Origin: Candidatus Omnitrophota bacterium
Lineage (GTDB): Bacteria; Omnitrophota; Gorgyraeia; Zapsychrales; JANLHA01
Length of the DNA stretch: 64,000 bases
Reading direction: 5' to 3'
Assembly (NCBI GenBank): GCA_020632535.1
Contig: JACKFJ010000007.1
Span: forward strand, 13,749 to 77,748
The notes under the pieces were generated by a model. It worked only from the letters and a program-made list of their open reading frames with translations. It was not told the origin of the DNA and searched no databases. The position numbers and the translations under genes are program-made. Positions 12,739 to 61,296 of the stretch are shown piece by piece; within the stretch, counting starts at the first letter, position 1, and every line of letters begins with the position of its first letter.

Positions 12739-14084
12739 TTTTTCTTTTTTTCTGAAAGGATACTGCTAAAAACCCAGAACAGGGTCAGCGGTAAAAGGGA
12801 AAAGAGAATGCGATTAAGCGAGACAGATAACCACCATTTGATTTCAAAGTACGTGTTAATTTCATAATACGCTAAAATCACGCCGAAATATATAAAGAGA
12901 AAAATTGCCACAAGAAAGTTTTCGGTCCAAAGTTTTTTTCCCCCGAGTAGCCCGCCGAGTAGAATTAAAAACCATAGTCCATTCCATTTTCCACTTTTAA
13001 ATTCGGTTCCCAAATACATGAAAATGACTTGCAAGCGTTCCCACGTTGCGGGTTTTAATGTCGATGTCAGGCCGTTGATAAAAGTTTGATTGCCCGGGGA
13101 ATACAAGACATGGAAAGCAAGTGTCGGTAAAGACGCGAGAATAAATCCGATAAAGAACAATTTAGTATTCGCAGAAGAGAAAACGTTTTGTTTCTTAAAG
13201 ATGCTCCATGTTGTTAACGATACAACTAGAGCCCCTAAGATTAGCGCCGCGATGAGACCCTCAGGTTTGGTAAATCCTAAAAAACCGTTAAAAATTCCTG
13301 ATAATAAAGCTAAATAACTTTTTTTGTGTTTTTGTGCTTCCAGCAATGTCATTATTCCCGCCAAGAGATAAAAAGACAGCACAATATCGCAATACTGTGT
13401 TGTGGCAAGTAAATTGAAAAACGGTAAAGTCAAAAGCAAAAGTCCGGGAAGAATGCTAAAAAGATTTTTGGTCCGCTCCCATAAAGCACTGCACAATAAT
13501 CCCGCCGTTAAGCCTGTGAATAAGAAAGATGTGATTAAAGGAAGAATAGAAACGGGTTTTTCGGTAAAAAGCCAGCCCCAGACATTGATCAAAGGCAAAA
13601 GAAGAGGATAATGTGGACTGCTGCGCCAAAGTTCGGGTGAAAAAAGGTTGTGCCAGTTGTCCTCGGCCAAAAGTAGAAATTTTGCTTTAAAATTCCAGAC
13701 CTGCCATGCGTCCCAGCCGCCATGAGGATAAAACAAAGCCTGTTTAAAAACACAAGCCAATATGATGATGCCAAGAATGAGTAAAGCAGATTTTTGCCAT
13801 GACCATTTGGGTGGAGTGAACTTAACGCTGTTATTCCCCCAGAGGAAAGCGCGATTAAAGAGGAGTGCACAGAGAAGCAAAAGATGAATGTTGATAATGA
13901 TTTGTGGTTCTAAACGATTTAAAAATAGAAAACTGCCAAATGTCATATAGCTGCTTAAACCTAAACCTAAACCCGCGCCAAGAATGATTTTTAAATATAG
14001 ATTTGGTTGTGTTTCTTTTTTAAGAAACAGGCTTACGATAAGAAAACCGATTGTAAAAGAGATAAAAAAAGGCAAAAAGATCAT
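12735..14084 (-). CDS. polytopic membrane protein, putative GT-C (ArnT/PMT-like) glycosyltransferase
   Basis: 449 aa with about 12 predicted TM helices and loop motifs (YPHGGWDAWQVWNFKAKF, SSPHYPLLLPL) resembling GT-C-fold enzymes. Assignment by eye only. Confidence 0.4.
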   Translation of the reverse strand: MIFLPFFISFTIGFLIVSLFLKKETQPNLYLKIILGAGLGLGLSSYMTFGSFLFLNRLEPQIIINIHLLLLCALLFNRAFLWGNNSVKFTPPKWSWQKSALLILGIIILACVFKQALFYPHGGWDAWQVWNFKAKFLLLAEDNWHNLFSPELWRSSPHYPLLLPLINVWGWLFTEKPVSILPLITSFLFTGLTAGLLCSALWERTKNLFSILPGLLLLTLPFFNLLATTQYCDIVLSFYLLAGIMTLLEAQKHKKSYLALLSGIFNGFLGFTKPEGLIAALILGALVVSLTTWSIFKKQNVFSSANTKLFFIGFILASLPTLAFHVLYSPGNQTFINGLTSTLKPATWERLQVIFMYLGTEFKSGKWNGLWFLILLGGLLGGKKLWTENFLVAIFLFIYFGVILAYYEINTYFEIKWWLSVSLNRILFSLLPLTLFWVFSSILSEKKKN

Positions 14085-14581
14085 GGCTGTTGCCTACTCA
14101 TGTTTTTATCAATTATTGAAATCATGTTAGCTTTTTGTGTGTCGACTATGTTGGGATTATGCGCAATAATAATGCCATATTGATTGCCCTTGAGTGCTTT
14201 GGCGCCGATTTCTTTGATTTTATTAAGTGCGACGACTGGAGAACTGCAATTAAAGATAATAAATTCGTGATTGGTATTGTTGAGATCTAAAATGCTGGGA
14301 GCAAGAATAAGCTGTGCTTGCGCAAACTGCATTGCGGCATGGTTGTCGTCGAGGCTTTTATCCGTGTAGTAACCAATGTAAGGTGCGTTTTGGGTGATCT
14401 TTTCGATTCCACGAAACCAGTCGCCCTTGAAAGTATAAGGATATCGTTGGCGTAGCCGATGATTATTGATTGTTTCCTTGGCTAATGTGTAGAGATTAAA
14501 GACTAAAAGCACGGAGGCCGCCGTCAGGAAAATATGCTTTTTGTTAAAGTCGAGATTAGGGCGTAATTTATTTTGCTTCAT
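14081..14581 (-). CDS. membrane-anchored hypothetical protein
   Basis: 166 aa with one N-terminal TM helix. ATGA overlap with the downstream GT-C-like gene implies translational coupling. Confidence 0.5.
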   Translation of the reverse strand: MKQNKLRPNLDFNKKHIFLTAASVLLVFNLYTLAKETINNHRLRQRYPYTFKGDWFRGIEKITQNAPYIGYYTDKSLDDNHAAMQFAQAQLILAPSILDLNNTNHEFIIFNCSSPVVALNKIKEIGAKALKGNQYGIIIAHNPNIVDTQKANMISIIDKNMSRQQP

Positions 14582-14752
14582 TGTCGTTGAGAAAAGACCC
14601 TTGATACCAGTGTCGTATGATTTATTTTGTATTTCATAGATTCTATCTGGAAAAATGAGATAAATATAAAAAAATATTATTTTTAAGTTAACAGAAATTG
14701 CCTATAATGGCGGTAGCAATTCATTTAATTTTGACTCATCAAGGAGGTTTCT

Positions 14753-15769
14753 TTGATCCGTTTAGGCATTATTGGTTGCGGCCATTGGGGGCCCAACCAC
14801 ATCCGTATTTTTAATCAAATCGCGAACTCCCAAGTCGTAATTTGTGCTGATCTCGATGAAGATCGATTAAAATCGATCAAAGCGCTTTTTCCGACGATCA
14901 AGACTACCAAAAATTATCAGGAAATTTTAAAAGACAGTACAGTTGATGCGGTATGTATCGCGTCTCCGACCAATACGCATTTTCAATTTACAAAAGAGGC
15001 ACTTGAACATGGTAAACACGTTTTGTGTGAAAAACCGCTCGCATTGCATCCTGAGGAATGTTTAAAGTTAAAAGAGATCGCCCATCAGAATAATAAATTG
15101 CTCATGGTTGGTCATATTTTTGTTTTTAATCCGGGCATTGTCCGCCTAAAAGAATATATCCAGTCCGGTGAGTTAGGCACGATTCAGTACGCGCATTCAG
15201 AACGTACGAATTTGGGTCCTTTCCGTTATGATGTCAATGCGTTATGGGATTTAGCACCACACGACATTTCTATTTTTGATTATCTCTTTGAAAGCGCGCC
15301 ATTGAAAGTTTCGGCGTGTGGCCAAAAATGTTTAGGCAAAAGTCTCGAAGATGTGGCTTTTGCGTCGCTGGAGTATCCCGGCAAAATTATGGTTAATATT
15401 CATGTTAGCTGGCTTGATCCTAAGAAAGTCCGACAGATTACGATTGTCGGCGATAAAAAGATGGTTGTGTGGGATGATCTTGATAATTTAGGCCCAATCC
15501 GTCTGTACGATAAACACGTTGAGCGCACAGCAAAGTTTTATGAAAGTTATGGTGAATTTCAACTTTTATCCCGTGAGGGAAGTATCACAATTCCTAATAT
15601 GGGTTTTCATGAACCGTTAAAAATTCAGGCGCAGTATTTTATTGATTGTATGCAAAGCAATAAACAGCCGGAACGCGCGGATGCTGAAAAAGGATTTCAA
15701 GTGGTTCGTACATTATGCGCGACACAGCGTTCGATTGAAAAAGGCGGCATGCCCGAGGTAATTTTGTAA
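14753..15769 (+). CDS. Gfo/Idh/MocA-family NAD-dependent sugar oxidoreductase (WbpB-like)
   Basis: TTG start after an AAGGAGG SD. Rossmann motif IGIIGCGHWG and the EKPLA motif. Confidence 0.8.
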   Translation: MIRLGIIGCGHWGPNHIRIFNQIANSQVVICADLDEDRLKSIKALFPTIKTTKNYQEILKDSTVDAVCIASPTNTHFQFTKEALEHGKHVLCEKPLALHPEECLKLKEIAHQNNKLLMVGHIFVFNPGIVRLKEYIQSGELGTIQYAHSERTNLGPFRYDVNALWDLAPHDISIFDYLFESAPLKVSACGQKCLGKSLEDVAFASLEYPGKIMVNIHVSWLDPKKVRQITIVGDKKMVVWDDLDNLGPIRLYDKHVERTAKFYESYGEFQLLSREGSITIPNMGFHEPLKIQAQYFIDCMQSNKQPERADAEKGFQVVRTLCATQRSIEKGGMPEVIL

Positions 15770-16338
15770 TGTGGAAGAAAAATTATTTTCAGCATCCCAA
15801 TGCTTTGGTTAGTTCTAAAGCTACGGTTGGTGATGACACGCGGATTTGGGCTTTTGTCAATGTTCAAGCGGGAGCAGTTATCGGCCGCGAATGTAATGTG
15901 TGCGACGGATGTTATATTGAAAAAGGCGCGGTCATTGGCGATCATGTGATTCTTAAGAATGGTGTTAATGTTTTTGAAGGTGTGACAATTCAAGACAATG
16001 TTTTTTGCGGAGCGAATACGGCTTTTACGAATGATCGGCATCCGCGCGCGGTTCGTCGAGATCCGTGGGTTTTAGAGCAGACGCTAGTTAAAAAGGGCGC
16101 GTCGATTGGTAGCAATGCAGTCATTTTATGCGGAATCACGATTGGTGAATACGCAGTCATTGGTGCCGGAGCGATCGTGACCAAATCTGTCGGGGATTAT
16201 GAAATCATTACCGGTAATCCCGGCCGGTCTGTGGGGTATGCGTGCCGTTGCGGCCGCAAGCTTTCCGGTGATCATTTTTGTGCAGCCTGCCGACAACAGT
16301 ACATATTTTCTGACAACAAACTTCGCATCAAAGAATAG
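15769..16338 (+). CDS. left-handed beta-helix N-acetyltransferase (WbpD/WlbB-like) with a C-terminal Cys4 tail
   Basis: Hexapeptide repeats throughout and FTNDRHPRA. The tail CRCGRKLSGDHFCAACRQQY looks like a zinc ribbon. Confidence 0.75.
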   Translation: MWKKNYFQHPNALVSSKATVGDDTRIWAFVNVQAGAVIGRECNVCDGCYIEKGAVIGDHVILKNGVNVFEGVTIQDNVFCGANTAFTNDRHPRAVRRDPWVLEQTLVKKGASIGSNAVILCGITIGEYAVIGAGAIVTKSVGDYEIITGNPGRSVGYACRCGRKLSGDHFCAACRQQYIFSDNKLRIKE

Positions 16339-16348
16339 ATTTACTTTT

Positions 16349-17080
16349 ATGAATAAAGTTCTGGTCTGTCCGGTCGCTTATAATGAAAACGTCAAACTTA
16401 AGAATGTCATTGGTCGGTTTCTTAAGTCTCCGGTTTATGGAAAAGTCGATTATTTGATTGTTGATGACGCGTCGGATGATGGAACCAGTGAAATGATTCA
16501 CTCATTTGCGTCGCACGGTGTGCAAACGATTAAACAGTCTCAGCGCATGGGTGTTGGGGCCGCCATTCGAACTGCGGTTAAGCACGCGGTGGATAAAGGT
16601 TATGAGATTTTGGTTATTATGGCGGGTAATGATAAAGATAATCCTGACGAAATTCCACAATTGCTTGCGCCGATTATTGACAAAGGCTTCGATTTGGTTC
16701 AGGGGTCACGTTACATCGGGGGTAATCGTATCGGCGGAGACATGCCGTTTTATCGAAAATGGGCGACACGATTGCATCCATTTCTTCTTTCCGTTGCTGT
16801 TGGTCGTAAAGTCACGGATAGCACGAATGGTTTTCGGGCGATGCGCTTATCGCTCTTTAAAGATGCGCGAATCAATCTCGATCAAGAATGGCTCAACACG
16901 TACGAGTTAGAACCATATATCCTTTTTAAAACGATACGATTAAATTATCGTTTTTGTGAGGCGCCGGTTACTAAAATTTATCCCGCGAAAAGTTTGGGAT
17001 ACACGAAGATGAAACCTATTGTGGGATGGTGGAGTATATTAAAACCGATCTTTTATTTGGGGCTTGGCATTAAGAAATGA
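16349..17080 (+). CDS. family 2 glycosyltransferase (polyprenyl-phosphate sugar synthase-like)
   Basis: VDYLIVDDASDDGT and the DxD-containing GT2 fold. Start moved to Met51 of track ORF 16199..17080 (MNKVLVCPVAYNEN), because the upstream part overlaps the acetyltransferase in another frame. Confidence 0.8.
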   Translation: MNKVLVCPVAYNENVKLKNVIGRFLKSPVYGKVDYLIVDDASDDGTSEMIHSFASHGVQTIKQSQRMGVGAAIRTAVKHAVDKGYEILVIMAGNDKDNPDEIPQLLAPIIDKGFDLVQGSRYIGGNRIGGDMPFYRKWATRLHPFLLSVAVGRKVTDSTNGFRAMRLSLFKDARINLDQEWLNTYELEPYILFKTIRLNYRFCEAPVTKIYPAKSLGYTKMKPIVGWWSILKPIFYLGLGIKK

Positions 17081-17835
17081 AAAAATGTAATCGCTGTAAA
17101 ATTGTTTTTCATAGCGATGAACGCCTGCGCTGTCTTTATTGCGACACGAATTTATTGACTGTCGAAAAAGATGATACTTTGGGATTTCGGGATGATAAAG
17201 ATTTTGATCCCAATCTTGTCGGTGGCGATATTAAACGCGAAGTCTCAGTGCTTAAGGAAATTTTAAGTGAATGGGAAATGGGCGAGTTTCTGCGTGCCCA
17301 ATATGTTGTTGGGACATATTTTAAAGTCAGAACTTTTAAGTTTTTGTATGCTTTTAGCCGTAATCATTTTAGAATGGGCAGGGATTATAAACGACTTTTG
17401 ATCCAGCCATTGAATATTACGTCATTCTTAATTGTCCCGTGGGTCATCGTCGATGTTTTGGATTCTTTTTTTATCAGATTAACTTACAATGCGTATTGTG
17501 AAAAATGTGGATGGAAATTCCGTCAGGTGCACGCGACACAAATACATGACCCTGAGGAGTGTGAATATAATCAGGAATATTCGCGCATTGTAACCGAGAT
17601 TTTAAGCGGGAATGTCAATAAAACCGAAGGCTTGATTAAAGAAAGCGCGTATCGCAAGATTCGTACGGGTAAGCGCAGCGCGTACAAGGATCTTTGTTCT
17701 CGACGGAGCGCAACGGGATGGTTTATGGATGTGATGTGTATATGGCTGTCAATTCTTGCGCTACTTGTGGGTGCAGTTGTAGTTATTTTTCCGATATTTA
17801 TGAAATTTGGAAGTTTTATGACGTCGGATCTTTAG
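17077..17835 (+). CDS. zinc-ribbon membrane protein, function unknown
   Basis: N-terminal CNRCK...CLYCD ribbon, a second CEKCG...EECE cluster and a C-terminal TM helix. ATGA overlap with the GT2 gene. Confidence 0.5.
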   Translation: MKKCNRCKIVFHSDERLRCLYCDTNLLTVEKDDTLGFRDDKDFDPNLVGGDIKREVSVLKEILSEWEMGEFLRAQYVVGTYFKVRTFKFLYAFSRNHFRMGRDYKRLLIQPLNITSFLIVPWVIVDVLDSFFIRLTYNAYCEKCGWKFRQVHATQIHDPEECEYNQEYSRIVTEILSGNVNKTEGLIKESAYRKIRTGKRSAYKDLCSRRSATGWFMDVMCIWLSILALLVGAVVVIFPIFMKFGSFMTSDL

Positions 17836-17858
17836 TGTTTTCTAACTTAGGAGAAAAA

Positions 17859-18134
17859 ATGAAACCTTTTATCATGTGTATAGGAATTTTGATTGTGGCT
17901 GGTTGTACGACAGAAAGCCCGGTGACACATATTATTCGCGACCGAGAATTTAGCCAATATCAGGCGACTCTTGATGAATTGGAAAGTGAATATCTTCGCA
18001 AAGAAATCAGTTACGCTGATTATTTAGAGAAAAAGAAATATGTCGAGAATAATTATCAAAAGCAAGTTGATACACGTCGGACAACGATTCAGGATGCCAG
18101 TAGTATTCGCTTAAATACTGAGTTGGGTCAATGA
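17859..18134 (+). CDS. small lipoprotein, function unknown
   Basis: ATG at 17859 after an AGGAG SD. MKPFIMCIGILIVAGC carries a lipobox. The track ORF start at 17694 overlaps the previous gene. Confidence 0.5.
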   Translation: MKPFIMCIGILIVAGCTTESPVTHIIRDREFSQYQATLDELESEYLRKEISYADYLEKKKYVENNYQKQVDTRRTTIQDASSIRLNTELGQ

Positions 18135-18862
18135 AACTTTACGGTCGTAATCCTGTTCTAGAGCGAATTAAATCGAATCCGCGGAGTATTTTAAAAATCT
18201 TTGTTCAGGCGGGCCATCCGGAATCAGCTTACGTTCATGAAAAAGCTAAGAAATATGGCATTCCTGTGAATGTGGTTCCGGGATCGAAAATGTTAAAGTT
18301 GGCGCGTGATGTGAATTCGCAAGGTTTGCTCGCGGAAATTGAAAAATTTTCATATTTGCCTTTACCGGATGTTCTTGAGGCCGCAAAAAAGAAAAATGCT
18401 ACGCTGGTTTTTCTTGATGAGCTCAATGATCCTCAGAATTTAGGCGGTATTATGCGCAGTCTTGGTTGTTTGGGAGATTTTTATATTGTTTTACCGACGC
18501 ATCATTCGGTTGAAGTCACGGAAACCGTTTTGCGTGTGGCCTGTGGCGGTGATAATTATGTGGGGGTCAGCAAGGTTGCTAATATTGCAATTGCGCTTGC
18601 TAAAGCCAAAGAAGAAGGGTTTTGGATTGCCGGTTCCGTTGTCAAAGATGGACAGGATTTGATGGAAACCAGATTTCAATTTCCACTCGCGCTTGTTATT
18701 GGTTCCGAGCAAAAAGGAATTCGTGATGTGATTCGTAAACAGTTGGATTTGTTGGTCACAATTCCGATGGCAAACGCGCGTATGTCATTAAACGCGGCAC
18801 ACGCGACTACGATATTATGCTATGAGATTTTACGTCAACGTAAAAATGATACATCGCGATGA
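18131..18862 (+). CDS. rlmB: SpoU/TrmH-family rRNA 2'-O-methyltransferase (RlmB-like)
   Basis: LYGRNPVLE substrate-binding N-domain plus SPOUT motifs (LDELNDPQNLGGIMRS, LVIGSEQKGI, SLNAAHA). Confidence 0.8.
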   Translation: MKLYGRNPVLERIKSNPRSILKIFVQAGHPESAYVHEKAKKYGIPVNVVPGSKMLKLARDVNSQGLLAEIEKFSYLPLPDVLEAAKKKNATLVFLDELNDPQNLGGIMRSLGCLGDFYIVLPTHHSVEVTETVLRVACGGDNYVGVSKVANIAIALAKAKEEGFWIAGSVVKDGQDLMETRFQFPLALVIGSEQKGIRDVIRKQLDLLVTIPMANARMSLNAAHATTILCYEILRQRKNDTSR

Positions 18863-19476
18863 AAAAGACTAAGTCAAAAGTGTTAAAAAGTAAATCCCAG
18901 CCATCATTAGAAGCTGCGGTTGATTTTTTTGCTGAAGCTGGTCTTTTGAAGCATGTGAAGCGAAGCGGTTGGTGGGTCGCTGGTATCAAAGATCCTGAAT
19001 CGGTCGCGGAACATTGTTTTCGCACGGCAGTGATGGGTTTTTATCTTGCGCATCTCGAAAATATTGACCCTTACAAAGTTGTGGTGATGGCGCTTTTTAA
19101 CGATATTCATGAATCGCGGATTAATGATTTGCACAAAATGGGGCATTATTATATTGATTTTAAGGGCGCGGAAAAAAAAGTTTTTAAGGATCAAGTCGCT
19201 AATATCGACGGGAATATACGTTTGGTTCTTGAAAAGATGCGCAAAGATTATGATGAGCAGCAGACTAAAGAAAGTATTGTTGCGCGTGATGCGGATATTC
19301 TTGAATGTCTTTTACAGGCCAAGGAATACTATGATCGAGGGCATACGGGCGCCAAGCTTTTCTTTAAGCGGGCGCCGGGATATTTGAAAACGAAAAGCGC
19401 GCAAGCGATGTGGAAGAGCATTGCCAAGTGGGACAGCCATGGATGGTGGCAAAATGTTGTGAAATTTGAGCGATGA
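18859..19476 (+). CDS. HD-domain phosphohydrolase (YfbR-like 5'-deoxynucleotidase family)
   Basis: ESVAEHCFRTA and NDIHESRINDL metal-binding H..HD..D pattern. Confidence 0.7.
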   Translation: MKKTKSKVLKSKSQPSLEAAVDFFAEAGLLKHVKRSGWWVAGIKDPESVAEHCFRTAVMGFYLAHLENIDPYKVVVMALFNDIHESRINDLHKMGHYYIDFKGAEKKVFKDQVANIDGNIRLVLEKMRKDYDEQQTKESIVARDADILECLLQAKEYYDRGHTGAKLFFKRAPGYLKTKSAQAMWKSIAKWDSHGWWQNVVKFER

Positions 19477-20249
19477 GCTTTAAGGTTGAATTAGATATGA
19501 ATATAAAAATTATATTAACTTTTCTGATAGCTGTAACAATGAGTGGGTGCGCATCGCTTGGGAGTTATAATGCCGCGACTGGGCGCCAAGAATTGATTTT
19601 TATTTCCACGCCCCAAGAAGTCGCGATGGGTCAAACTGTACATAAGCAGATTACAGCAACGGAAAAACTTTCCAAAGATAGTGAACTTATTGCTCGTGTT
19701 AATCGCATTGGGAAGAAAGTTGCGTCAGCGTCAGACCGGCAGGACTATCAGTATCATTTTTATGTTATTGAGAAGAATGAAATTAATGCTTACACCGTGC
19801 CGGGTGGGGGTATTTATATATACACGGGATTGTTAAATGAGTTAAAGAGTGACGATGAAATTGCCGCGGTTTTGGGACACGAAATTGGTCATTGTGCGGC
19901 TCGTCATACGGTTAAGAAATTTCAAGCGGCACTGGGATATGATTTTTTAAGCGAAATTGTTTTGAGTAAGGTTGATCAGCAGATGCAGCAGCTTGCCGCC
20001 ATGGGTTCTGGCGCGGTGATGACGCTCGTTACATCAGCGTATAGCCGCAGTGATGAATATCAAGCTGATCAATTAGGACTTAAATATATGCGGCGCGCGG
20101 GTTATGATTTAAATGGCATGGTTAAAAGTTTTGAGGTTCTTGCGAAAGAAGGAGGTGGGGGAAGCACGCCGCTTATTTTGCGGACGCATCCTTATATCGC
20201 TGATCGTATCAAGGCTGTTAAAGAAGAAATCGCCAAATCTCACAATTAA
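19473..20249 (+). CDS. M48-family zinc metalloprotease lipoprotein
   Basis: HEIGHCAARH zinc site, lipobox TMSGC, and a downstream E..AD motif (SDEYQADQLG). Confidence 0.85.
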   Translation: MSFKVELDMNIKIILTFLIAVTMSGCASLGSYNAATGRQELIFISTPQEVAMGQTVHKQITATEKLSKDSELIARVNRIGKKVASASDRQDYQYHFYVIEKNEINAYTVPGGGIYIYTGLLNELKSDDEIAAVLGHEIGHCAARHTVKKFQAALGYDFLSEIVLSKVDQQMQQLAAMGSGAVMTLVTSAYSRSDEYQADQLGLKYMRRAGYDLNGMVKSFEVLAKEGGGGSTPLILRTHPYIADRIKAVKEEIAKSHN

Positions 20250-20261
20250 AGAGGATATAAG

Positions 20262-20552
20262 ATGGAACGAATTGGAATCGCGGCCAGCAAGATTGCCAAA
20301 GGGAATTTATTTCTTTATAACGTATATGTGATCGTTTTGTCTTTTTTGTTATCATTGCTGCTATTTTTATTAGCCGGCTCGGCAATTTTTCTTGGTTTAT
20401 GGGTCATCCGTTTAGTGATTGGACCGTTAATTCCGTCAATGAGTCAAAAACTTTGGAATGTGATTTTTAGTTTTTCATTAATTTCGCTGACGTTTGTCGT
20501 GACATCAGTAAGTTTGGTCGCGGTTTCCAAGAACATTAAATTTAAAAAGTGA
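20262..20552 (+). CDS. small 3-TM membrane protein, function unknown
   Basis: AGAGGA SD, hydrophobic segments, no overlap with neighbouring genes. Confidence 0.4.
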   Translation: MERIGIAASKIAKGNLFLYNVYVIVLSFLLSLLLFLLAGSAIFLGLWVIRLVIGPLIPSMSQKLWNVIFSFSLISLTFVVTSVSLVAVSKNIKFKK

Positions 20553-20565
20553 TCTTTTTGTCCTT

Positions 20566-22863
20566 ATGAGTTTAGCAAGCCCTATATTGTGGTCAGATGT
20601 CCGACCGTTAATGGATGCCATGCCTGTTGGTGTTTTTCGGATTGATCTTGAGAACAAGCGCGCTTTTATTTTTGCGAATGATTGTCTAAATCGTATTCTC
20701 ACGTATACGATTGCTGAGATTCAATCACTTTCTTGTGATGCGATATTCCCAGATAAAACGATTTTGCGCGCATTGATCGATCAGGCGATCAAGGATGGTT
20801 CTGCGTTTTGTCCGGAGATCGCTGTTCTGACGAAAACAAAACGTTCATTGTCCTGTTCACTTTCTTTGGTGGCAGTTAAGGAAGACAAATCCAAAGTTCG
20901 GTTTATCGACGGTATTTTGCAGGATCTTTCCGGCATTAAGCGGGTTGAGCGTGATTTTAAAGAATCAAAGGAACTTTTTCAGACGGTTTTTAATAGTTCC
21001 GCGGTTGCCATTATTGTCGCGGATGAATTTGGTAAAATTACAGCGTGGAATCCTTTTGTTCAGGAAATGCTTGAAATGGAAAAGATTGATATTTTCAATA
21101 AGGATGCGTGCGAACTTTATCCGCCCCAGGAATGGGATCGTATGCTTGCGCTGCGCAGCAAGGAAACCGGAATGGTTACGGATATTGAAACACAGGTTTA
21201 TAAGAAAGGCGGCGTTGCTTTAGATGTCGCCCTCTCATTGTCGTTTATCAGGGACAGTGAGCAAAAAGTTATTGGAACGATTGCAATTTTGCGTGATATG
21301 ACAAAACAAAAAATCGCGGAACGTAAGATTCGCGAGTCGGAAAATAAAATCCGTATTATTCTCGATCATTCCGCGGCGGCAATCACGTTGACTGATGAAC
21401 AGGAAAGGATTATTTCTTGGAATCGCTTCACGGAGCAAATGTTGGGCAAGACCAAAGACGATATTTATTTGCAGCATATCAGCAGTTTGTATCCAGAAGA
21501 TGAATGGAAAAAAATTCGTGCGGAAGGTATTCGTAAAACGGGTTCACGTCATCATTTCGAAACACGCGCGATTAAGAAAGATGGCACGATTATCGACGTG
21601 GATCTTTCTGTTAATATTCTTAAGGATTCCAATGATAATATTGTCGGATCTGTCGGTATCATGCAGGATATTACTGAACAGAAAAAAGTGCAGCAGATGC
21701 TCGTCAAAGCGAAAATAGCGGCGGAAGAAGCTAATAACTCCAAAAGCTTATTTTTGGCGAATATGTCGCATGAAGTTCGCACGCCGATGAATACGATTTT
21801 AGGGTTAGTCGACCTGACGCTTGATACACAGGGATTGACAGTCGAGCAACGAGATAATTTAAGTACAATTAAGAATGCGGGTGATGTTTTATTGAGCCTT
21901 CTTAATGATATTTTAGATCTTTCACGCGTTGAGGCTGGGAAAATTCAACTTGAAAATATTGAATTGAGTCTTTCGAATATTGTGCAAAGTGTCTGTAAAG
22001 GGCTTGAAGTTTTGTCGCGTCAAAAGAAATTGGAACTTGTTCGTGAGGTGGATTCATCCATTCCTGAAGTATTGATAGGTGACCCGGTGCGCATTCGTCA
22101 GATTTTGGTCAATTTGATTAACAATGCCATTAAATTTACATTTCAGGGGCAGATCACTACGCGGGTGAAGTTGATTAATATTGTTGATGGTGTGTGCGAA
22201 TTGCAATTTTCGGTTAAGGACCAAGGGGTAGGAATTCCGAAGGATAAAGTTGAAACAATTTTTGAAGCTTTTACTCAGGCGGACGCGTCGACTACGAGGC
22301 GTTTTGGCGGAACTGGTCTAGGTTTGGCAATTTCGAAACGGCTTGTTGAAATGATGGGAGGGCGGATCTGGGCTGAAAGTGAAGAGTTTCAGGGTAGTAC
22401 ATTTATTTTTACCGCGAAATTTCGTGTTGCAGAAAATGTTAAAGCCGTCACGGCTGAAGCGGTCGAAGCAGTGCCAGTTATCAAAGAGACAAAAAATCTT
22501 CGGGTCCTTTTAGCGGAAGACAATGTTGTTAATCAGAAAATTGCGGCTAAAATGCTTGAAAAGAAGGGATGGTTTGTCAAGGGCGCGGAAAACGGCAAGC
22601 AAGTTCTGGAGTATTTGGAGCAGGAACAATTTGATGTTATTCTCATGGACGCGCAAATGCCGGTTCTCGATGGATTTGAAGCAACTCGGCTTATTCGTGA
22701 GGCAGAACAGAAAACAGGTAAGCATATTCCAATTGTCGCGTTGACCGCTCACGCTATGGCCGGAGACAGGCAAAAATGTTTAGACGCGGGAATGGATGGA
22801 TATGTTTCGAAGCCGATTGATCGGCAAAAATTATATGAAGCTGTTGAAAGTGTCGTAACGTAA
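20566..22863 (+). CDS. hybrid sensor histidine kinase / response regulator with multiple PAS domains
   Basis: Three PAS-like repeats, the H-box MSHEVRTPMN, N/G boxes (NLINNAIKFT, DQGVGI, GGTGLGLAI) and a C-terminal receiver (LLAEDN...DAQMPVLDG...KP). Confidence 0.9.
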   Translation: MSLASPILWSDVRPLMDAMPVGVFRIDLENKRAFIFANDCLNRILTYTIAEIQSLSCDAIFPDKTILRALIDQAIKDGSAFCPEIAVLTKTKRSLSCSLSLVAVKEDKSKVRFIDGILQDLSGIKRVERDFKESKELFQTVFNSSAVAIIVADEFGKITAWNPFVQEMLEMEKIDIFNKDACELYPPQEWDRMLALRSKETGMVTDIETQVYKKGGVALDVALSLSFIRDSEQKVIGTIAILRDMTKQKIAERKIRESENKIRIILDHSAAAITLTDEQERIISWNRFTEQMLGKTKDDIYLQHISSLYPEDEWKKIRAEGIRKTGSRHHFETRAIKKDGTIIDVDLSVNILKDSNDNIVGSVGIMQDITEQKKVQQMLVKAKIAAEEANNSKSLFLANMSHEVRTPMNTILGLVDLTLDTQGLTVEQRDNLSTIKNAGDVLLSLLNDILDLSRVEAGKIQLENIELSLSNIVQSVCKGLEVLSRQKKLELVREVDSSIPEVLIGDPVRIRQILVNLINNAIKFTFQGQITTRVKLINIVDGVCELQFSVKDQGVGIPKDKVETIFEAFTQADASTTRRFGGTGLGLAISKRLVEMMGGRIWAESEEFQGSTFIFTAKFRVAENVKAVTAEAVEAVPVIKETKNLRVLLAEDNVVNQKIAAKMLEKKGWFVKGAENGKQVLEYLEQEQFDVILMDAQMPVLDGFEATRLIREAEQKTGKHIPIVALTAHAMAGDRQKCLDAGMDGYVSKPIDRQKLYEAVESVVT

Positions 22864-55703: not shown

Positions 55704-57041
55704 ATGAACGAAAAACAAAAAACAATTGCCAAAGAATTTTCATTAAGCGGCCGCGGCTTGCATACGGGAAATTTTGTTACGATGACGGTTAAGCCCGCGG
55801 TAGAAAATCATGGCATTGTGTTTATTCGTGTTGATTTACCGGAAAAAACGCAGATTAAGGTGGGTGTTGAAACGATTCGTTTGGATTCCGGTGTTCCTCG
55901 CTGCACGACGATTGGGATTGGCCAAGTGTTTATTCACACCGTCGAACATTTGATGAGCACATTGTGCGGTTTAGAAATTGACAATGTGACAATTGAAATC
56001 GACGGCAATGAAGTCCCACTTTTAGATGGTAGTGGTTTAGAATTTTTGCATGCAATCAAAAAAGTCGGTGTAGTCGAGCAGAATGCTTTGCGGGAATGGA
56101 TTATTATTCGTGAGCCGATTGTCGTTAATCACAAGGACGCGTCGATAACGGTTGTGCCCGATGAAGAATATAAAGTTTCATATCTTTTGGATTACAAACA
56201 TCCATTCTTAGGGACGCAATTTTTTTCGATGATAGTTAATTCCACGAATTTTGAAAAAGAATTGGCGCCGTGCCGTACATTTTGTCTTGAAGAAGAAGCC
56301 GCGGAATTGCGCAAGCATAATTTAGGCTTGGGAGCCAATTATGAAAATACGCTGGTGATTAATGACAAAGGCGTTATTAATAATCAATTGCGTTTTGCTG
56401 ATGAATTTAGTCGTCATAAGGCTTTGGATTTTGTGGGTGATTTGTATCTTTTGGGTAAGCCGATTCGTGGCAGTGTTTCTGCCATCAAAAGTGGACACAA
56501 TTTGAATTTGGCCCTGCTTAAAAAAATTCATCAACAGTATGTCAATTATGCGAAACAAAGTTTTATTTCTAATACAACATTTTGTGATAAGACGGAACTT
56601 GATGTTAGTCAAATCATGAAAATTTTGCCGCACCGGTATCCATTTTTGTTTTTAGATCGAATTGTGCACTTGGATAGAGGTAAAAAAGTCATTGGCATCA
56701 AAAATGTCACCATTAATGACAATTTCTTTGAAGGACATTTTCCAACCCGTCCGATTATGCCGGGTGTTTTGATGGTTGAAGCTTTGGCTCAGGCGGCAGG
56801 GATCCTGATGTTGACGAACCAAGATCATCATGGTAAAGTAGCCCTGTTTATGGCGGTCGACAAGGTCAAATTTCGCAAACTTGTTGTTCCGGGTGAACAA
56901 TTGCATTTGGAAGTGGAAATGGTGCGTGATCGTTCTCGTACGGCGCAGCTTAAGGGCGTTGCCCGCGTCGGCGATGAAATCGCTGTTGAAGCGGAAATGA
57001 TGTTTTCTTTTATTGATGGGCAATTTTTGTTACAAGGATAG
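55704..57041 (+). CDS. lpxC-fabZ: bifunctional UDP-3-O-acyl-GlcNAc deacetylase / 3-hydroxyacyl-ACP dehydratase (LpxC-FabZ fusion)
   Basis: The LpxC part carries GRGLHTG, TVEHLMS, HKALDFVGDL and GHNLN. The FabZ part carries ILPHRYPFLFLDRI, FFEGHFP..PIMPGVL.VEALAQ. Confidence 0.9.
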   Translation: MNEKQKTIAKEFSLSGRGLHTGNFVTMTVKPAVENHGIVFIRVDLPEKTQIKVGVETIRLDSGVPRCTTIGIGQVFIHTVEHLMSTLCGLEIDNVTIEIDGNEVPLLDGSGLEFLHAIKKVGVVEQNALREWIIIREPIVVNHKDASITVVPDEEYKVSYLLDYKHPFLGTQFFSMIVNSTNFEKELAPCRTFCLEEEAAELRKHNLGLGANYENTLVINDKGVINNQLRFADEFSRHKALDFVGDLYLLGKPIRGSVSAIKSGHNLNLALLKKIHQQYVNYAKQSFISNTTFCDKTELDVSQIMKILPHRYPFLFLDRIVHLDRGKKVIGIKNVTINDNFFEGHFPTRPIMPGVLMVEALAQAAGILMLTNQDHHGKVALFMAVDKVKFRKLVVPGEQLHLEVEMVRDRSRTAQLKGVARVGDEIAVEAEMMFSFIDGQFLLQG

Positions 57042-57828: not shown

Positions 57829-57840
57829 GTGGCCAGTGAC

Positions 57841-58644
57841 ATGGAAACTATTGGACTGATCGCCGGCAACGGCAAATTCCCCATCCTTTTTGCCCGTGAA
57901 GCCCGTCGCCAAAATCTCAAAGTGGTGGCCGCAGCGATCAAAGGCGACACATCTATTCTCCTAAAATTCTTTACTGATGATCTTAAGTGGTTTAAGGTTG
58001 GAGAACTCAAAAAACTTTTTTCCTATCTTAAAGACCGTGGTGTTAAGCGCGTCATTATGGCCGGACAGGTCAATCCTAAAAATCTTTTTGATAAGTCCGT
58101 CGCGCTTGATGGTGAATTTCACGATTTGATGCAAGCTTTGGAAGATCGTAAGGCCGATACGATTTTTCGCGCCGTGGCCGATAAATTAAAGACGGAAGAT
58201 TTAGACCTTTTGGATTCTACGTTTCTTTTGAAAGGATATTTGGCGCCCAAAGGCACGTTAACGCGACGCGGTCCGACGATCTTGGAATTGGAAGACATTA
58301 CGTTTGGTCGCACGATTGCCAAGGCTATGGGCGGATTAGATGTCGGGCAGACTGTCGTTATTAAAGAAAAAGCGATTGTCGCCATCGAAGCGATGGAAGG
58401 GACGGATCGCTGTATCCGTCGGGGCGCCGAGATTGCCCGCGAAGGCGCGGTTGTTGTCAAAATGAGTAAGCCCGGGCAGGATTTGCGTTTTGATATTCCT
58501 GTCGTCGGAGCGCGTACAATTCAAAACATGATTCGCGGTCACGCCAAGTGTCTGGCCATTGAAGCAGAAAAAACATTGATCATCGATCGCGCCGCTTGTG
58601 TCAAACTTGCCAATAAGGCGGGTATTTGTATTGTCTCGTCGTGA
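57841..58644 (+). CDS. lpxI: UDP-2,3-diacylglucosamine diphosphatase LpxI (DUF1009)
   Basis: IGLIAGNGKFPILFA and GLDVGQTVVIKEKAIVAIEAMEGTDRCIRRG motifs. ATG at 57841; the track start is a GTG at 57829. Confidence 0.8.
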   Translation: METIGLIAGNGKFPILFAREARRQNLKVVAAAIKGDTSILLKFFTDDLKWFKVGELKKLFSYLKDRGVKRVIMAGQVNPKNLFDKSVALDGEFHDLMQALEDRKADTIFRAVADKLKTEDLDLLDSTFLLKGYLAPKGTLTRRGPTILELEDITFGRTIAKAMGGLDVGQTVVIKEKAIVAIEAMEGTDRCIRRGAEIAREGAVVVKMSKPGQDLRFDIPVVGARTIQNMIRGHAKCLAIEAEKTLIIDRAACVKLANKAGICIVSS

Positions 58645-58650
58645 GGTTTT

Positions 58651-59658
58651 ATGCCAAAACGCCTTACATTTTCTTCTCTAACCTACATTCAGCTCGTTAA
58701 GCTCATCAAGAGTGAAATTGTTGACGGGAAAAAGATCATTCAACAAACGCAGGCGCAAAAATATTGGAATATCGGTAAATCAATTTCGGAATATATTTTA
58801 AACGGCAAAGATCGCGCGAAGTACGGCGAACATGTTTTTAAGAAGCTTGCAGACGATTTGAATGTCAACGCCAGGATTTTGTATCAAGCTAGTGATTTTT
58901 ATCGCAAATTTCCAATTTTGAACGCGCGTTCACAATTGAGCTGGACACACTTTCGTGAGCTTTTGACTCTGCCTGACTCGACGCAGCGCAAAGATTTGAT
59001 GGAAAAAGCTCGACGGGAAGGCCTGACCAGTCGCGAGTTTAAACAATTGGTTCAAAAGAAAAAGGTTGTTATTCCGACGGAAGGGACAATTGCGCAACTC
59101 AAAGTCACGCGTGGAAAACTTTATACCTATAAGATCAATGAGTTTAAGCATTGGAAATCGATTGAATTGCAAAAGGGCATTGACTGCGGATTTGATGTGT
59201 CCTACCGGCCGACGGCGGTGCAGTTGGCAAAATTTACCGCGGGAAAAATCATTGAAACGCTAAAGGCTGATAATAATTATTCGGTCAAGTCCAGTGAACG
59301 TGTCGAGAGCGATCTGTTTACTTTTAAAGCCAAAGTTGAAAAGGTCATTGATGGGGACACGCTTTTAACGCGGGTCAACTTAGGCTTTAGGATGTCCAAA
59401 AAGCATAAATTGCGTTTTCGTGGAATTGACACGCCGGAAATCGACACGCCCGAAGGTCAATTGGCTCACAAGTTTGTTGAAGACCGCATTAAGCAGTGTG
59501 AATTCATTGTGATCAAAACGCATAAAGATGATAAGTACGGGCGGTATCTCGTCGATGTTTTTTATCTTCCCGGAGAGCCGGATGCGCAAAAGGTCGCCGC
59601 AACAGGAATTTATTTAAATCAAGAACTGCTCGACAATCGTTTGGCGGTCAAATGGTGA
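58651..59658 (+). CDS. fusion protein: DUF1016 (YhcG) N-terminal domain + staphylococcal-nuclease (SNase/thermonuclease) domain
   Basis: The N-part (YWNIGKSI...RAKYGEHVFKKLADDL...DFYRKFP...LSWTHFRELL...LTSREFKQLV) matches the YhcG N-terminal helical pattern. The C-part has VIDGDT, LRFRGIDTPE and DKYGRYLVDV, that is, all the SNase catalytic residues. Confidence 0.7.
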   Translation: MPKRLTFSSLTYIQLVKLIKSEIVDGKKIIQQTQAQKYWNIGKSISEYILNGKDRAKYGEHVFKKLADDLNVNARILYQASDFYRKFPILNARSQLSWTHFRELLTLPDSTQRKDLMEKARREGLTSREFKQLVQKKKVVIPTEGTIAQLKVTRGKLYTYKINEFKHWKSIELQKGIDCGFDVSYRPTAVQLAKFTAGKIIETLKADNNYSVKSSERVESDLFTFKAKVEKVIDGDTLLTRVNLGFRMSKKHKLRFRGIDTPEIDTPEGQLAHKFVEDRIKQCEFIVIKTHKDDKYGRYLVDVFYLPGEPDAQKVAATGIYLNQELLDNRLAVKW

Positions 59659-59741: not shown

Positions 59742-59770
59742 TTGACTTTCCCCGCCTTTTTCTATATAAT
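59742..59770 (+). promoter_or_regulatory. sigma70-like promoter candidate upstream of lysS
   Basis: TTGACT (59742-59747), a 17-nt spacer, then TATAAT (59765-59770). Confidence 0.45.
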
Positions 59771-59820
59771 CCTTCTATTATTTTTTATATAATCTTCGAC
59801 GGAAAAGGGAATCTCTTTTT

Positions 59821-61296
59821 ATGGAAGTTGATGAAATCAAGCACGTTAGGATTGAAAAGCTCAATAAATTGATCGCGCAAGGTCTTGAGCCGTATGGCCG
59901 CCGCTTTGTAACGACACATGCCATTGCGGATGCTTTGGCAAATTTTGTGGAAGAAACGCCTGTTGTTTTGGCTGGTCGCGTTCTCGCGAATCGTCGTCAC
60001 GGCAAAGCCCTTTTTCTTGATCTTGTTGATCAAAGCGGCAAGATTCAGCTGTATATCAATGCCGGTCACATTGGTGAACAAGGCTTTGCCATCGTCGAGG
60101 AAATGGATATTGGCGATATCATTGGCGTCGAAGGGGTCATGTTTAAAACCAAGACGGGACAGGAAAGTGTCAAGGTTTCTAAGGTCACGGTTTTGGCCAA
60201 GTCGCTTATGACTTTGCCCGAAAAGTGGCATGGCTTAAAAGACGTTGAGATTCGTTACCGTCAACGTTATGTGGATTTGATCGCAAATGCTAGCGTGCGT
60301 GAAATTTTCTTAAAGCGCACTAAGCTTATTACCTTTATTCGTTCCTATCTCGATACGCGCGGATTTTTGGAAGTCGAAACGCCGATGCTGCAGCCGCAAG
60401 CAGGTGGAGCGCGTGGTCGTCCGTTTAAGTCAAAGCACAATACGTATGATATGGATGTTTATTTGCGCATCGCGCCGGAGTTGTATTTAAAGCGTTTGCT
60501 CGTCGGAGGATTTGAGCGTGTGTACGAAATTAATCGCAATTTTCGCAATGAAGGAATTTCGACGCGCCACAATCCTGAGTTTACGATGTTAGAGGCCTAT
60601 CAATCGTATGGTGACTTTAACGACATGATGGATTTGATGGAAGGCTTAATCAGCGAAAGCGCCAAGCTTTTGACAGGTTCGTATAAGGTGCAATATCAGG
60701 GCAAAGAAATTGATTTTACGCCGCCATGGGAACGCCGTTCGTTTGCAAAAATTATCAAAGACAAATTTGATATCAATCCCGAAGATGATGCCAAGACCAT
60801 GTTAGACAAGGTCAAAGCCAAAGGCGGTCGTGGCAAGATTGACACGCTGACCCGTTCCGCGGTCATGAAAATCGTTGAAGACATTCTCGACGAGGACGCG
60901 ACGATGAATCCGGTTTTCTTTACGGATTACTTTACATTTTTGTGTCCGTTGGCCAAGACTAAGAAGGACAATCCATTTATTTCTGAGCGTTTTGAATGTT
61001 TTGTCGCGGGATTGGAAGTCGGCAATGCGTATTCGGAGTTAAACGATCCGCAGGAACAGAAGGCGCGGCTCTTGGAAGATTTGACTGATGATACGGAAAC
61101 GGGATTGCGTACGATCGACGAGGATTTTATTAACGCGCTTGAGTATGGTATGCCGCCGGCGGGTGGTTTGGGGATTGGCATTGACCGACTTGTGATGTTA
61201 TTGACAGATTCGCCTACGATACGGGAAGTTATTTTGTTCCCGCTTTTAAAGCCACTTGTCAAATCAGAAGAGGAATCTCCAAAGTCGTCGGGGTAA
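59821..61296 (+). CDS. lysS: lysine--tRNA ligase (class II)
   Basis: OB anticodon-binding domain, RYRQRYVDL, FLEVETPML, NRNFRNEG, EFTMLE and GMPPAGGLGIGIDRL. Confidence 0.95.
   Translation: MEVDEIKHVRIEKLNKLIAQGLEPYGRRFVTTHAIADALANFVEETPVVLAGRVLANRRHGKALFLDLVDQSGKIQLYINAGHIGEQGFAIVEEMDIGDIIGVEGVMFKTKTGQESVKVSKVTVLAKSLMTLPEKWHGLKDVEIRYRQRYVDLIANASVREIFLKRTKLITFIRSYLDTRGFLEVETPMLQPQAGGARGRPFKSKHNTYDMDVYLRIAPELYLKRLLVGGFERVYEINRNFRNEGISTRHNPEFTMLEAYQSYGDFNDMMDLMEGLISESAKLLTGSYKVQYQGKEIDFTPPWERRSFAKIIKDKFDINPEDDAKTMLDKVKAKGGRGKIDTLTRSAVMKIVEDILDEDATMNPVFFTDYFTFLCPLAKTKKDNPFISERFECFVAGLEVGNAYSELNDPQEQKARLLEDLTDDTETGLRTIDEDFINALEYGMPPAGGLGIGIDRLVMLLTDSPTIREVILFPLLKPLVKSEEESPKSSG

Follow-up and report, generated by a model that had tools for sequence, protein, structure and literature searches.

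What kind of protein is encoded by a nuclease-like gene lodged directly behind a lipid A gene cluster, and why does it lie there? The gene in question is a 335-aa open reading frame (ORF) with an ATG start on the + strand, at positions 58651-59658 of a stretch of contig JACKFJ010000007.1 from a Candidatus Omnitrophota bacterium (hereafter the window, meaning the whole 64-kb stretch that was analysed). The NCBI entry that is 100% identical to its protein is named 'thermonuclease family protein [Candidatus Omnitrophica bacterium]'. An earlier description made from the letters alone, here called the sequence-only reading, had seen in it a fusion of the N-terminal domain of YhcG/DUF1016 proteins with a staphylococcal nuclease (SNase) domain, inserted into a conserved operon and suggestive of defence or restriction. 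All of the motifs quoted there were found in the translation, and the gene is real, intact and selectively maintained. It encodes a three-part protein in which a DUF1016_N module is followed by a β-domain and a short, phage-type SNase domain with a conserved active site. A tblastn search with 120 family members as queries matched this single locus and found no further copy of the gene in the window.

Architecture of the protein

An AlphaFold2 model of the ORF protein built with 75 homologs (mean predicted local distance difference test score (pLDDT) of 87.7) consisted of three parts, namely helices at residues 12-137, four strands at residues 159-214 and an SNase barrel with helices at residues 224-335. 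Both terminal parts scored above the Pfam thresholds in a hidden Markov model search, where DUF1016_N (PF17761) matched residues 27-136 (E = 3.2e-16, 60.1 bits, cut-off 32.8) and SNase (PF00565) matched residues 253-332 (E = 1.3e-6, 29.3 bits, cut-off 21). YhcG_C (PF06250) gave no Pfam match in the ORF protein even at E <= 1, and the proposed exchange of a PD-(D/E)XK core for an SNase domain was borne out by this result together with the SNase match and the intact active site. The maximum Kyte-Doolittle mean over 19 residues was 0.85, with no signal peptide and no transmembrane segment; a secreted nuclease was ruled out by the N-terminus, which is not hydrophobic.

The nuclease domain was examined by structure and by residue. 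In Foldseek searches, residues ~220-335 of the model were matched to SNase crystal structures with a template modelling (TM) score of ~0.67 on the target and an E-value of ~2e-6, and more than 200 SNase chains were recovered at E <= 1e-3 with a root-mean-square deviation (rmsd) of 2-3 Å over 117 columns. The full-length search against the PDB was uninformative on the other two domains because only SNase point-mutant structures were returned. Using phmmer against PDB sequences, residues 227-319 were aligned to the Staphylococcus aureus thermonuclease (Nuc), and D236, R255, D260, T261, E263 and R298 were placed on D21, R35, D40, T41, E43 and R87 of SNase, respectively. Among 247 full-length homologs, D234 and R255 were invariant, and D236, R298 and E263 were kept in 245, 246 and 233 sequences, respectively. 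The D40 position was occupied by D in 196 and by N in 49 homologs and the T41 position varied widely (A, C or T), so that the metal site is not uniformly of the S. aureus type. The catalytic set D21/R35/D40(or N)/E43/R87 was kept in 230/247 homologs, which indicates that the active site is under selection.

The description of this part as a complete SNase domain was correct for the catalytic residues, all of which align, and incorrect for completeness. Of the 107 positions of the Pfam model, none beyond position 74 is matched, and the C-terminus of the protein lies close to SNase residue 112 in the alignment; the C-terminal helix α3 of the S. aureus enzyme is missing. The same short end was found in stand-alone phage proteins of 119-127 aa, to which the module is ~40% identical. 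The profile phrog_452 'endonuclease' matched residues 188-329 at its positions 34-171 of 201 (E = 1e-27, 98.3 bits), and phage endonucleases of this group (e.g. Flavobacterium phage Fpv5 gp48, 127 aa) share with the ORF protein the motifs F.Y.AKV..V.DGDT, DLGF, KYGRYL and LN..LL..GLA, the short C-terminus and the absence of a signal peptide. Fold, catalytic residues and metal-binding residues are those of the SNase superfamily, whose chemistry is non-specific and leaves 3'-phosphate ends. Unlike SNases and phage endonucleases, the ORF protein is fused to a module of DNA-binding type and to a duplicated-hairpin domain, and its gene is chromosomal in Omnitrophota, with a product that is neither phage-borne nor secreted; S. 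aureus Nuc, in contrast, is extracellular and carries the C-terminal helix.

For the N-terminal part, we know of no function of the YhcG/DUF1016 proteins, which are widespread among bacteria, archaea and phages and figure as a candidate defence system (PDC-S02 in PADLOC). YhcG has been predicted to be a PD-(D/E)XK nuclease with an E-D-E(I/L/V)K motif and a helical N-domain that was left unassigned (PMC1189080), and DUF1016 genes are enriched next to restriction-modification loci (PMC9881135). The DUF1016_N identity proposed from the letters was upheld by the Pfam score and by 37% identity over ~105 residues to the corresponding domain of P0120, a canonical protein with DUF1016_N and YhcG_C, and the precomputed PF17761 annotation is present on most homologs. 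Approximately 20 PADLOC models of PDC-S02 matched residues ~10-138 (best E = 6.6e-21), in each case with their N-terminal ~150 positions only and none over the full length. The ORF protein thus resembles YhcG (PF17761 + PF06250; COG4804; PDC-S02) in its helical N-module with the motifs YW.IG, RA.YG and LSWTHYR.L, in the plan of an N-module followed by a C-terminal nuclease, in being encoded by a solitary gene with no conserved partner and sometimes several nearby copies, and in its occurrence on mobile elements and close to genes of restriction or toxin-antitoxin systems. It differs from YhcG in that the PD-(D/E)XK YhcG_C is replaced by the unrelated oligonucleotide/oligosaccharide-binding (OB) barrel of SNase, with other chemistry, and in that ~85 aa of β-domain are added between the N-module and the nuclease.

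The second half of the N-module (residues ~66-138) showed weak and partial matches to ParB/Spo0J and to phage DUF3102 proteins. HTH_ParB (PF17762) scored 22.7 bits at residues 93-138, which is borderline against the Pfam cut-off of 22.6, a profile of the family N-domains matched the Spo0J/ParB DNA-binding region of 6sdk with E = 0.0027, and a BFVD structural search of the model gave weak matches to DUF3102 and ParB-like phage proteins. These similarities suggest that the C-terminal half of the N-module resembles a ParB-type helix-turn-helix (HTH). Unlike ParB/Spo0J, the ORF protein is without the N-terminal CTPase/ParB-box domain and has no partition context, and parS-like sites were not in evidence. 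RK2/RP4 ParB was set aside as a possible plasmid-borne analogue with SNase-like features, the often-repeated statement that this protein is a staphylococcal-nuclease homologue having been called erroneous (Zhang et al. 2012, PMC3482391).

The segment between the two terminal parts, previously taken for a linker of roughly 70 aa, proved instead to be a conserved folded β-domain of ~85 aa with an invariant motif of its own (G155 and D178-x-G180-F181, each residue kept in at least 96% of the 247 homologs), and it reached a pLDDT of 89 when modelled alone. The family consensus holds 'LYTY...(V/I)D.GF' twice, and hhalign placed residues 153-186 of the middle domain on residues 218-251 of the family SNase profile with 93.5% probability (P = 2.2e-7); the score of 38.2 compares with 14.9 at most after column shuffling (30 controls). 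The first half of this domain is thus a duplicate of the SNase β1-β2 hairpin in which the DGDT metal site has been lost, and the β-domain arose via duplication of this first hairpin of the nuclease barrel. By hhalign, no repeat was detected beyond 34 columns, and the second half of the domain had no detectable match to the later SNase strands. The isolated domain gave no significant fold match in the PDB (best E = 0.79), the weak matches being scattered small OB-type barrels. Eukaryotic SND1/Tudor-SN carries tandem SNase-like domains, and the ORF protein is similar to it in combining a catalytic-type SNase fold with an extra degenerate SNase-derived element in one polypeptide. Unlike in SND1/Tudor-SN, only a hairpin of ~34 residues is detectably duplicated rather than whole domains, no Tudor domain is present, no homology is detectable outside the SNase fold and the biology is unrelated.

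The insertion between lpxI and lysS

To compare the locus among relatives, we took the lpxI region from 80 species-representative genomes and located lpxA, lpxI, lysS, lolCE and the gene by tblastn; the junction counts rest on the 40 Omnitrophota loci in which both lpxI and lysS were found. In 29/40 loci, lysS follows lpxI after 94-317 bp with nothing between, three loci have one small extra ORF there (L031, L036 and L039) and six have unrelated insertions of 1.1-5.8 kb. The gene was found at this junction only in two loci (L013 and L014) and was absent in the other 38; a third locus (L012) also holds it on a contig that ends early. These three are the species closest to the window, with LpxI 81-84% identical, and at this junction the gene is therefore confined to the closest clade of the window, in whose ancestor it appears to have been inserted. 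Cargo found between lpxI and lysS elsewhere included an AbrB/PIN toxin-antitoxin pair (L050), a GIY-YIG-like gene (L024), thiamine genes with a LexA-like gene (L058), Fic (L009) and a Band_7 protein (L001). Across Omnitrophota, lpxI|lysS is a recurrent hotspot for insertions.

These comparisons also bear on the gene order. Pfam matches placed dnaB, bamA, skp, lpxD, lpxC-fabZ, lpxA and lpxI upstream of the gene and lysS and lolCE/lolD-like genes downstream, in agreement with the surroundings given in the sequence-only reading. Its view of an insertion into a conserved array likewise held, the lpxA-lpxI-lysS-lolCE array being uninterrupted at the lpxI-lysS junction in the 29 species. The expectation that lpxB should follow lpxI did not hold for Omnitrophota, where lysS is the normal successor.

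At the left edge, the gene starts 6 nt after lpxI with a GAGG Shine-Dalgarno-like motif 4 nt before its ATG, and a promoter/terminator scan found no convincing terminator or own promoter between lpxI and the ORF. Because of this short gap and the lack of evident signals, we consider read-through from the lpx operon, and the gene is probably transcribed as the last gene of the bamA-skp-lpx operon. At the right edge, the element TTGAC(A/T)-17-TATAAT was found 5' of lysS in both empty (L015-L019) and filled (L013 and L014) junctions; the gene thus lies downstream of the lpxI stop codon and upstream of the lysS promoter. The TTGACT-17-TATAAT form of this promoter-like element was conserved across the phylum. 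Near it, a second copy of TTTTTTATATAATC was seen 23 nt 3' of the first TTTTCTATATAATC (window positions 59781-59794). Searches for target-site duplications, att-like repeats or inverted repeats flanking the insertion gave only short imperfect matches at chance level, and no adjacent transposase or integrase was found in the window.

The age of the insertion was assessed by nonsynonymous (dN) and synonymous (dS) substitution rates against the closest relative (L094), in which the gene is 90% identical. The gene had a dN of 0.053, a dS of 0.657 and a dN/dS of 0.081, and seven neighbours in the same comparison had dS of 0.42-0.64 and dN/dS of 0.02-0.07. Within the gene, dN/dS rose from 0.05 in the N-module through 0.09 in the middle domain to 0.12 in the SNase domain. 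In two more distant relatives (L001 and L009), the gene is 66-68% identical in the same slot, with neighbours at 70-90%. Given a dS like that of the neighbours, the low dN/dS, the co-divergence in the slot and an unremarkable guanine-plus-cytosine (GC) content, the insertion is old, has passed vertically through the clade and has been maintained for its function. Around the gene, other cargo comes and goes in the relatives, including Band_7, Fic, a 343-346-aa protein and giant ORFs. In the L094 locus (11179-21008), lysS is not the next gene; two giant ORFs (1837 aa and >1456 aa), in which Pfam matched nothing, come directly after the family gene.

Table 1. Positions of the gene, its parts, its flanks and its plasmid homologs (window coordinates unless a locus is named)
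Feature	Coordinates	Strand	Basis
Complete CDS, DUF1016_N / β-domain / SNase protein, 335 aa plus stop	58651..59658	+	ORF list; 100%-identical NCBI protein; dN/dS
All-helical DUF1016_N module, residues 1-139, presumed DNA-binding/targeting part	58651..59067	+	Pfam, PADLOC models, AlphaFold2 helices
Four-stranded β-domain, residues 140-222	59068..59316	+	Conservation, model, hhalign
SNase β1-β2 hairpin duplicate, residues 153-186	59107-59208	+	hhalign; without DGDT metal site
SNase/thermonuclease domain, short phage type, residues 223-335	59317..59655	+	Pfam, phrog_452, Foldseek, conserved residues
lpxI, left flank of insertion	57829..58644	+	Pfam LpxI_N + LpxI_C
lpxI/ORF junction	58642..58650	+	lpxI stop TGA 58642-58644 overlaps GAGG 58643-58646
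lysS promoter-like site TTGACT-17-TATAAT, right-hand insertion edge	59742..59770	+	11/12 consensus matches
lysS, right flank of insertion	59821..61296	+	Pfam tRNA-synt_2 + tRNA_anti-codon
Leptospira plasmid homologs, 330 aa, all three parts	L092 6767-7759; L093 6767-7765		

The family and its genomic surroundings

We then surveyed proteins with the same architecture. A word-indexed search returned 141 relatives; almost every one spans the full length and has both Pfam domains, and where an organism is named it is mostly a member of Omnitrophota. An exhaustive profile search of 1.84 billion cluster representatives, clustered at 50% identity, detected 1,174 proteins at E <= 1e-30, the best 150 of which all align end to end. 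With so large a family of full-length members (~1,170 clusters), the fusion is neither unique nor an annotation artefact, and it is neither restricted to the genome of the window nor recent. The DUF1016_N-SNase family is large, annotated and uncharacterised, and consists mostly of Omnitrophota proteins plus those of Leptospira plasmids. The sequence-only reading had named a widespread and already characterised family as the finding that would speak against it; the family turned out to be widespread and not characterised, and our literature searches, which also covered SNases as anti-phage effectors, found no published account of the DUF1016_N + SNase architecture.

No full-length member was found in GenBank phages or IMG/VR, where only stand-alone SNase domains were detected, giving no evidence for a phage-borne fusion. 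A 330-aa 'nuclease' of an uncultured archaeal virus in BFVD (A0A8B0LSB6) was aligned over the whole length with a TM score of 0.25 and an rmsd of 18.6, which is uninterpretable and may reflect either noise or a viral protein of comparable multi-domain build. Plasmid homologs were found in cultured, pathogenic Leptospira (L. interrogans, L. weilii, L. noguchii and L. kirschneri), with IS982, Rpn, RHS/immunity and HTH genes as neighbours. In these copies, RFRGIDTPE is changed to RLHNVWSAE, with the Ca2+ ligand D40 changed to W, and they may be inactive or have a different metal site.

Genomic context was also examined around other distant homologs. One lies in a trmD|rplS island together with ORF6N and an AbiEii-like nucleotidyltransferase, and another lies upstream of pyrD-pyrF. 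A further island (L007 3886-9056) holds a YhcG split into a DUF1016_N gene (143 aa) and a YhcG_C gene (160 aa), a nucleotidyltransferase (NTase)/HEPN pair, and two tandem DUF1016_N-SNase paralogs (67% identical) followed by RadC and an HTH_3 gene. At the fabG|fabZ junction of two related contigs, the gene is 76% identical and its neighbours are 70-83% identical.

In addition, two genes per side were called at 51 further metagenomic loci, and the resulting 149 proteins were scanned with Pfam. Among 159 Pfam families in these neighbours, the recurrent ones were only HTH_3 (5), HTH_31 (4), Fic (3) and RadC, HigB, HEPN and NTP_transf_2 (2 each). No conserved partner, be it an immunity gene, an antitoxin or a methylase, was found among the 149 neighbours of the 51 loci. 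The immediate neighbours were often small (37/92 of <= 135 aa) and mostly on the same strand (69/92).

The two fabG|fabZ contigs mentioned above (L010 and L257, GCA_040960315.1) both read ribD-ribE-fabF-fabG-[X]-fabZ-acyP-ligA-xerC, where X is the family gene, with protein identities of 70-83%, and in one of the two copies the family gene is preceded by an inserted Mrr_cat nuclease together with an MNT/HepT pair. As the same array occurs on two contigs, this bin appears to be a mixture from two related populations; it also contains a third family member (P0074, L008).

Proposed function and alternatives

We propose that the gene encodes a solitary, cytoplasmic, three-part nuclease built on the YhcG design (PDC-S02), with the PD-(D/E)XK effector exchanged for an SNase domain. 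Its DUF1016_N module, ParB-HTH-like in the second half, would most likely bind DNA and position the enzyme, and the SNase domain would cut the bound nucleic acid with a metal-activated water, most likely in a Ca2+-dependent manner and leaving 3'-phosphate ends, by the chemistry usual for SNases. Inserted after the stop codon of lpxI and ahead of the lysS promoter, kept by purifying selection and probably transcribed with the lpx operon, the gene would most likely serve as an accessory nuclease of conflict or defence type against foreign DNA (phage or plasmid). Of this picture, the architecture, the conserved active site, the insertion, the purifying selection, the size of the family and its variable, partly conflict-type surroundings are established, and the binding of DNA by the N-module, co-transcription, Ca2+ dependence and action against foreign DNA are inferred. 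That the protein is an active, DNA-tethered nuclease we regard as highly probable, and we are similarly confident that the insertion has nothing to do with lipid A. The defence role is plausible and unproven, and the proposal as a whole, with a defence or conflict role included, stands at about even chances.

An accessory or conflict role is suggested by the company of the homologs, namely ORF6N, the AbiEii-like gene, the split YhcG, NTase/HEPN, Fic, Mrr_cat, MNT/HepT and the neighbours on Leptospira plasmids. The defence or restriction role that the sequence-only reading had drawn from nuclease-domain shuffling keeps a conditional standing, some homologs lying beside toxin-antitoxin, Mrr, RadC and Fic genes and most neighbours being housekeeping genes. 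Several points weigh against the proposal. The predicted DNA binding by the N-domain leans on weak similarity (HTH_ParB at the threshold and a PDB profile E-value of 0.003), and constitutive activity would be difficult to reconcile with a need for Ca2+ in a cytoplasm poor in that ion. The defence or toxin-antitoxin flavour of the neighbourhoods is qualitative only, and most flanking genes are ordinary housekeeping genes, as the 159 Pfam families in 149 neighbours indicate. In the sole test found, a PDC-S02 representative in Escherichia coli B challenged with T4, T5 and T7 was outside the four protective candidates (bioRxiv 10.1101/2024.09.26.614923). Finally, long vertical retention, purifying selection and probable constitutive expression from an operon fit a lineage-specific housekeeping role equally well.

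Such a housekeeping nuclease, acting in repair, recombination, nucleoid processing or nucleotide salvage, with its scatter attributed to genome shuffling in compact same-strand arrays, is the alternative that survives best, and we judge it unlikely. Its dN/dS of 0.08 is close to the 0.02-0.07 of the neighbours at the same dS, the same site has been kept over deep divergence in two separate clades, the GC content is unremarkable and the gene probably belongs to an essential operon at a gap of 6 nt; the family is also very large and concentrated in one phylum, with mostly housekeeping neighbours. The comparison among species argues the other way, the gene being absent at the junction in 38/40 related species and having no conserved partner or pathway neighbour. 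The tandem paralogs (L007), the Leptospira plasmid homologs among insertion sequence (IS) elements and RHS toxins, the recurrence of small toxin-antitoxin pairs next door and an N-module in common with YhcG proteins, whose genes typically accompany restriction-modification loci, likewise speak against it.

A second alternative is a special case of defence, in which the protein would be a latent toxin or abortive-infection effector that attacks all cellular DNA and kills its own cell instead of restricting selectively. It would be held inactive by low Ca2+ or through the N-terminal and middle domains and freed by infection or envelope damage. The Ca2+ ligands of SNase are conserved at D236 and D260, with T261 in the window protein, the protein is cytoplasmic and probably expressed constitutively with no recognisable immunity gene, and toxin-antitoxin modules recur next door. 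These arguments are purely inferential, no sensor domain was found in the protein, and the metal-site residues themselves vary, the D40 position being N in 49/247 homologs and W in the Leptospira copies and the T41 position being variable. We consider this reading rather improbable.

Less probable still, and in our view quite doubtful, is a selfish coloniser of junctions resembling a free-standing homing endonuclease, where the N-module recognises the empty junction, the nuclease cuts it and repair copies the gene in. Presence or absence at precise junctions within conserved arrays (lpxI|lysS, trmD|rplS, fabG|fabZ and upstream of pyrD) is in line with this, as are the lack of an adjacent transposase or integrase in the window, flanking repeats not above chance, a DNA-binding-plus-nuclease layout like that of free-standing homing enzymes and a nuclease module closest to phage-encoded short endonucleases. 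The strong purifying selection and long co-divergence with the host are unlike a cycle of gain, decay and loss, however, and the lpxI|lysS site is occupied in one clade only, with unrelated cargo there in other lineages. The non-specific cleavage of SNases with 3'-phosphate ends is established knowledge and does not suit homing, nor does the absence of full-length members on viral contigs. If homing were true, it would explain single-gene insertions without an integrase, provide an SNase-fold equivalent of homing endonucleases and reveal a first function, that of sequence recognition, for the widespread DUF1016_N module.

A link to lipid A or outer-membrane biogenesis, for which the sole evidence is that the gene lies at the end of the lpx cluster, 6 nt behind lpxI, in the window and in its nearest relatives, was rejected on comparative grounds as having next to no probability, there being no conserved lpx linkage across lineages: the association is limited to one shallow clade, the junction is empty in 29/40 species, distant homologs lie beside trmD/rplS, fabG/fabZ, pyrD and many others, and all of the domains are nucleic-acid related.

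The family is a large sister family of YhcG in which the same N-module is joined to a wholly different nuclease with an intact active site. Because the N-module is kept across two unrelated nucleases, it is the constant, function-defining part and the nuclease is an interchangeable effector; conflict systems are typically modular in this way, and attention therefore shifts to the N-module. As one of the best understood enzymes, SNase would offer an easy biochemical handle on the target of this module, and the homologs on plasmids of cultured Leptospira provide a tractable organism. Within Omnitrophota, whose members are poorly known and uncultured, an abundant accessory nuclease and an insertion hotspot at lpxI|lysS are identified. 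Since effector swapping is a familiar theme, the finding is moderately surprising and changes no major paradigm.

As a minor observation on the operon preceding the gene, a single 445-aa gene at window positions 55704-57041 combines lpxC with fabZ (LpxC and FabA-like domains), a fusion that was also found in three related loci (L001, L009 and L094).

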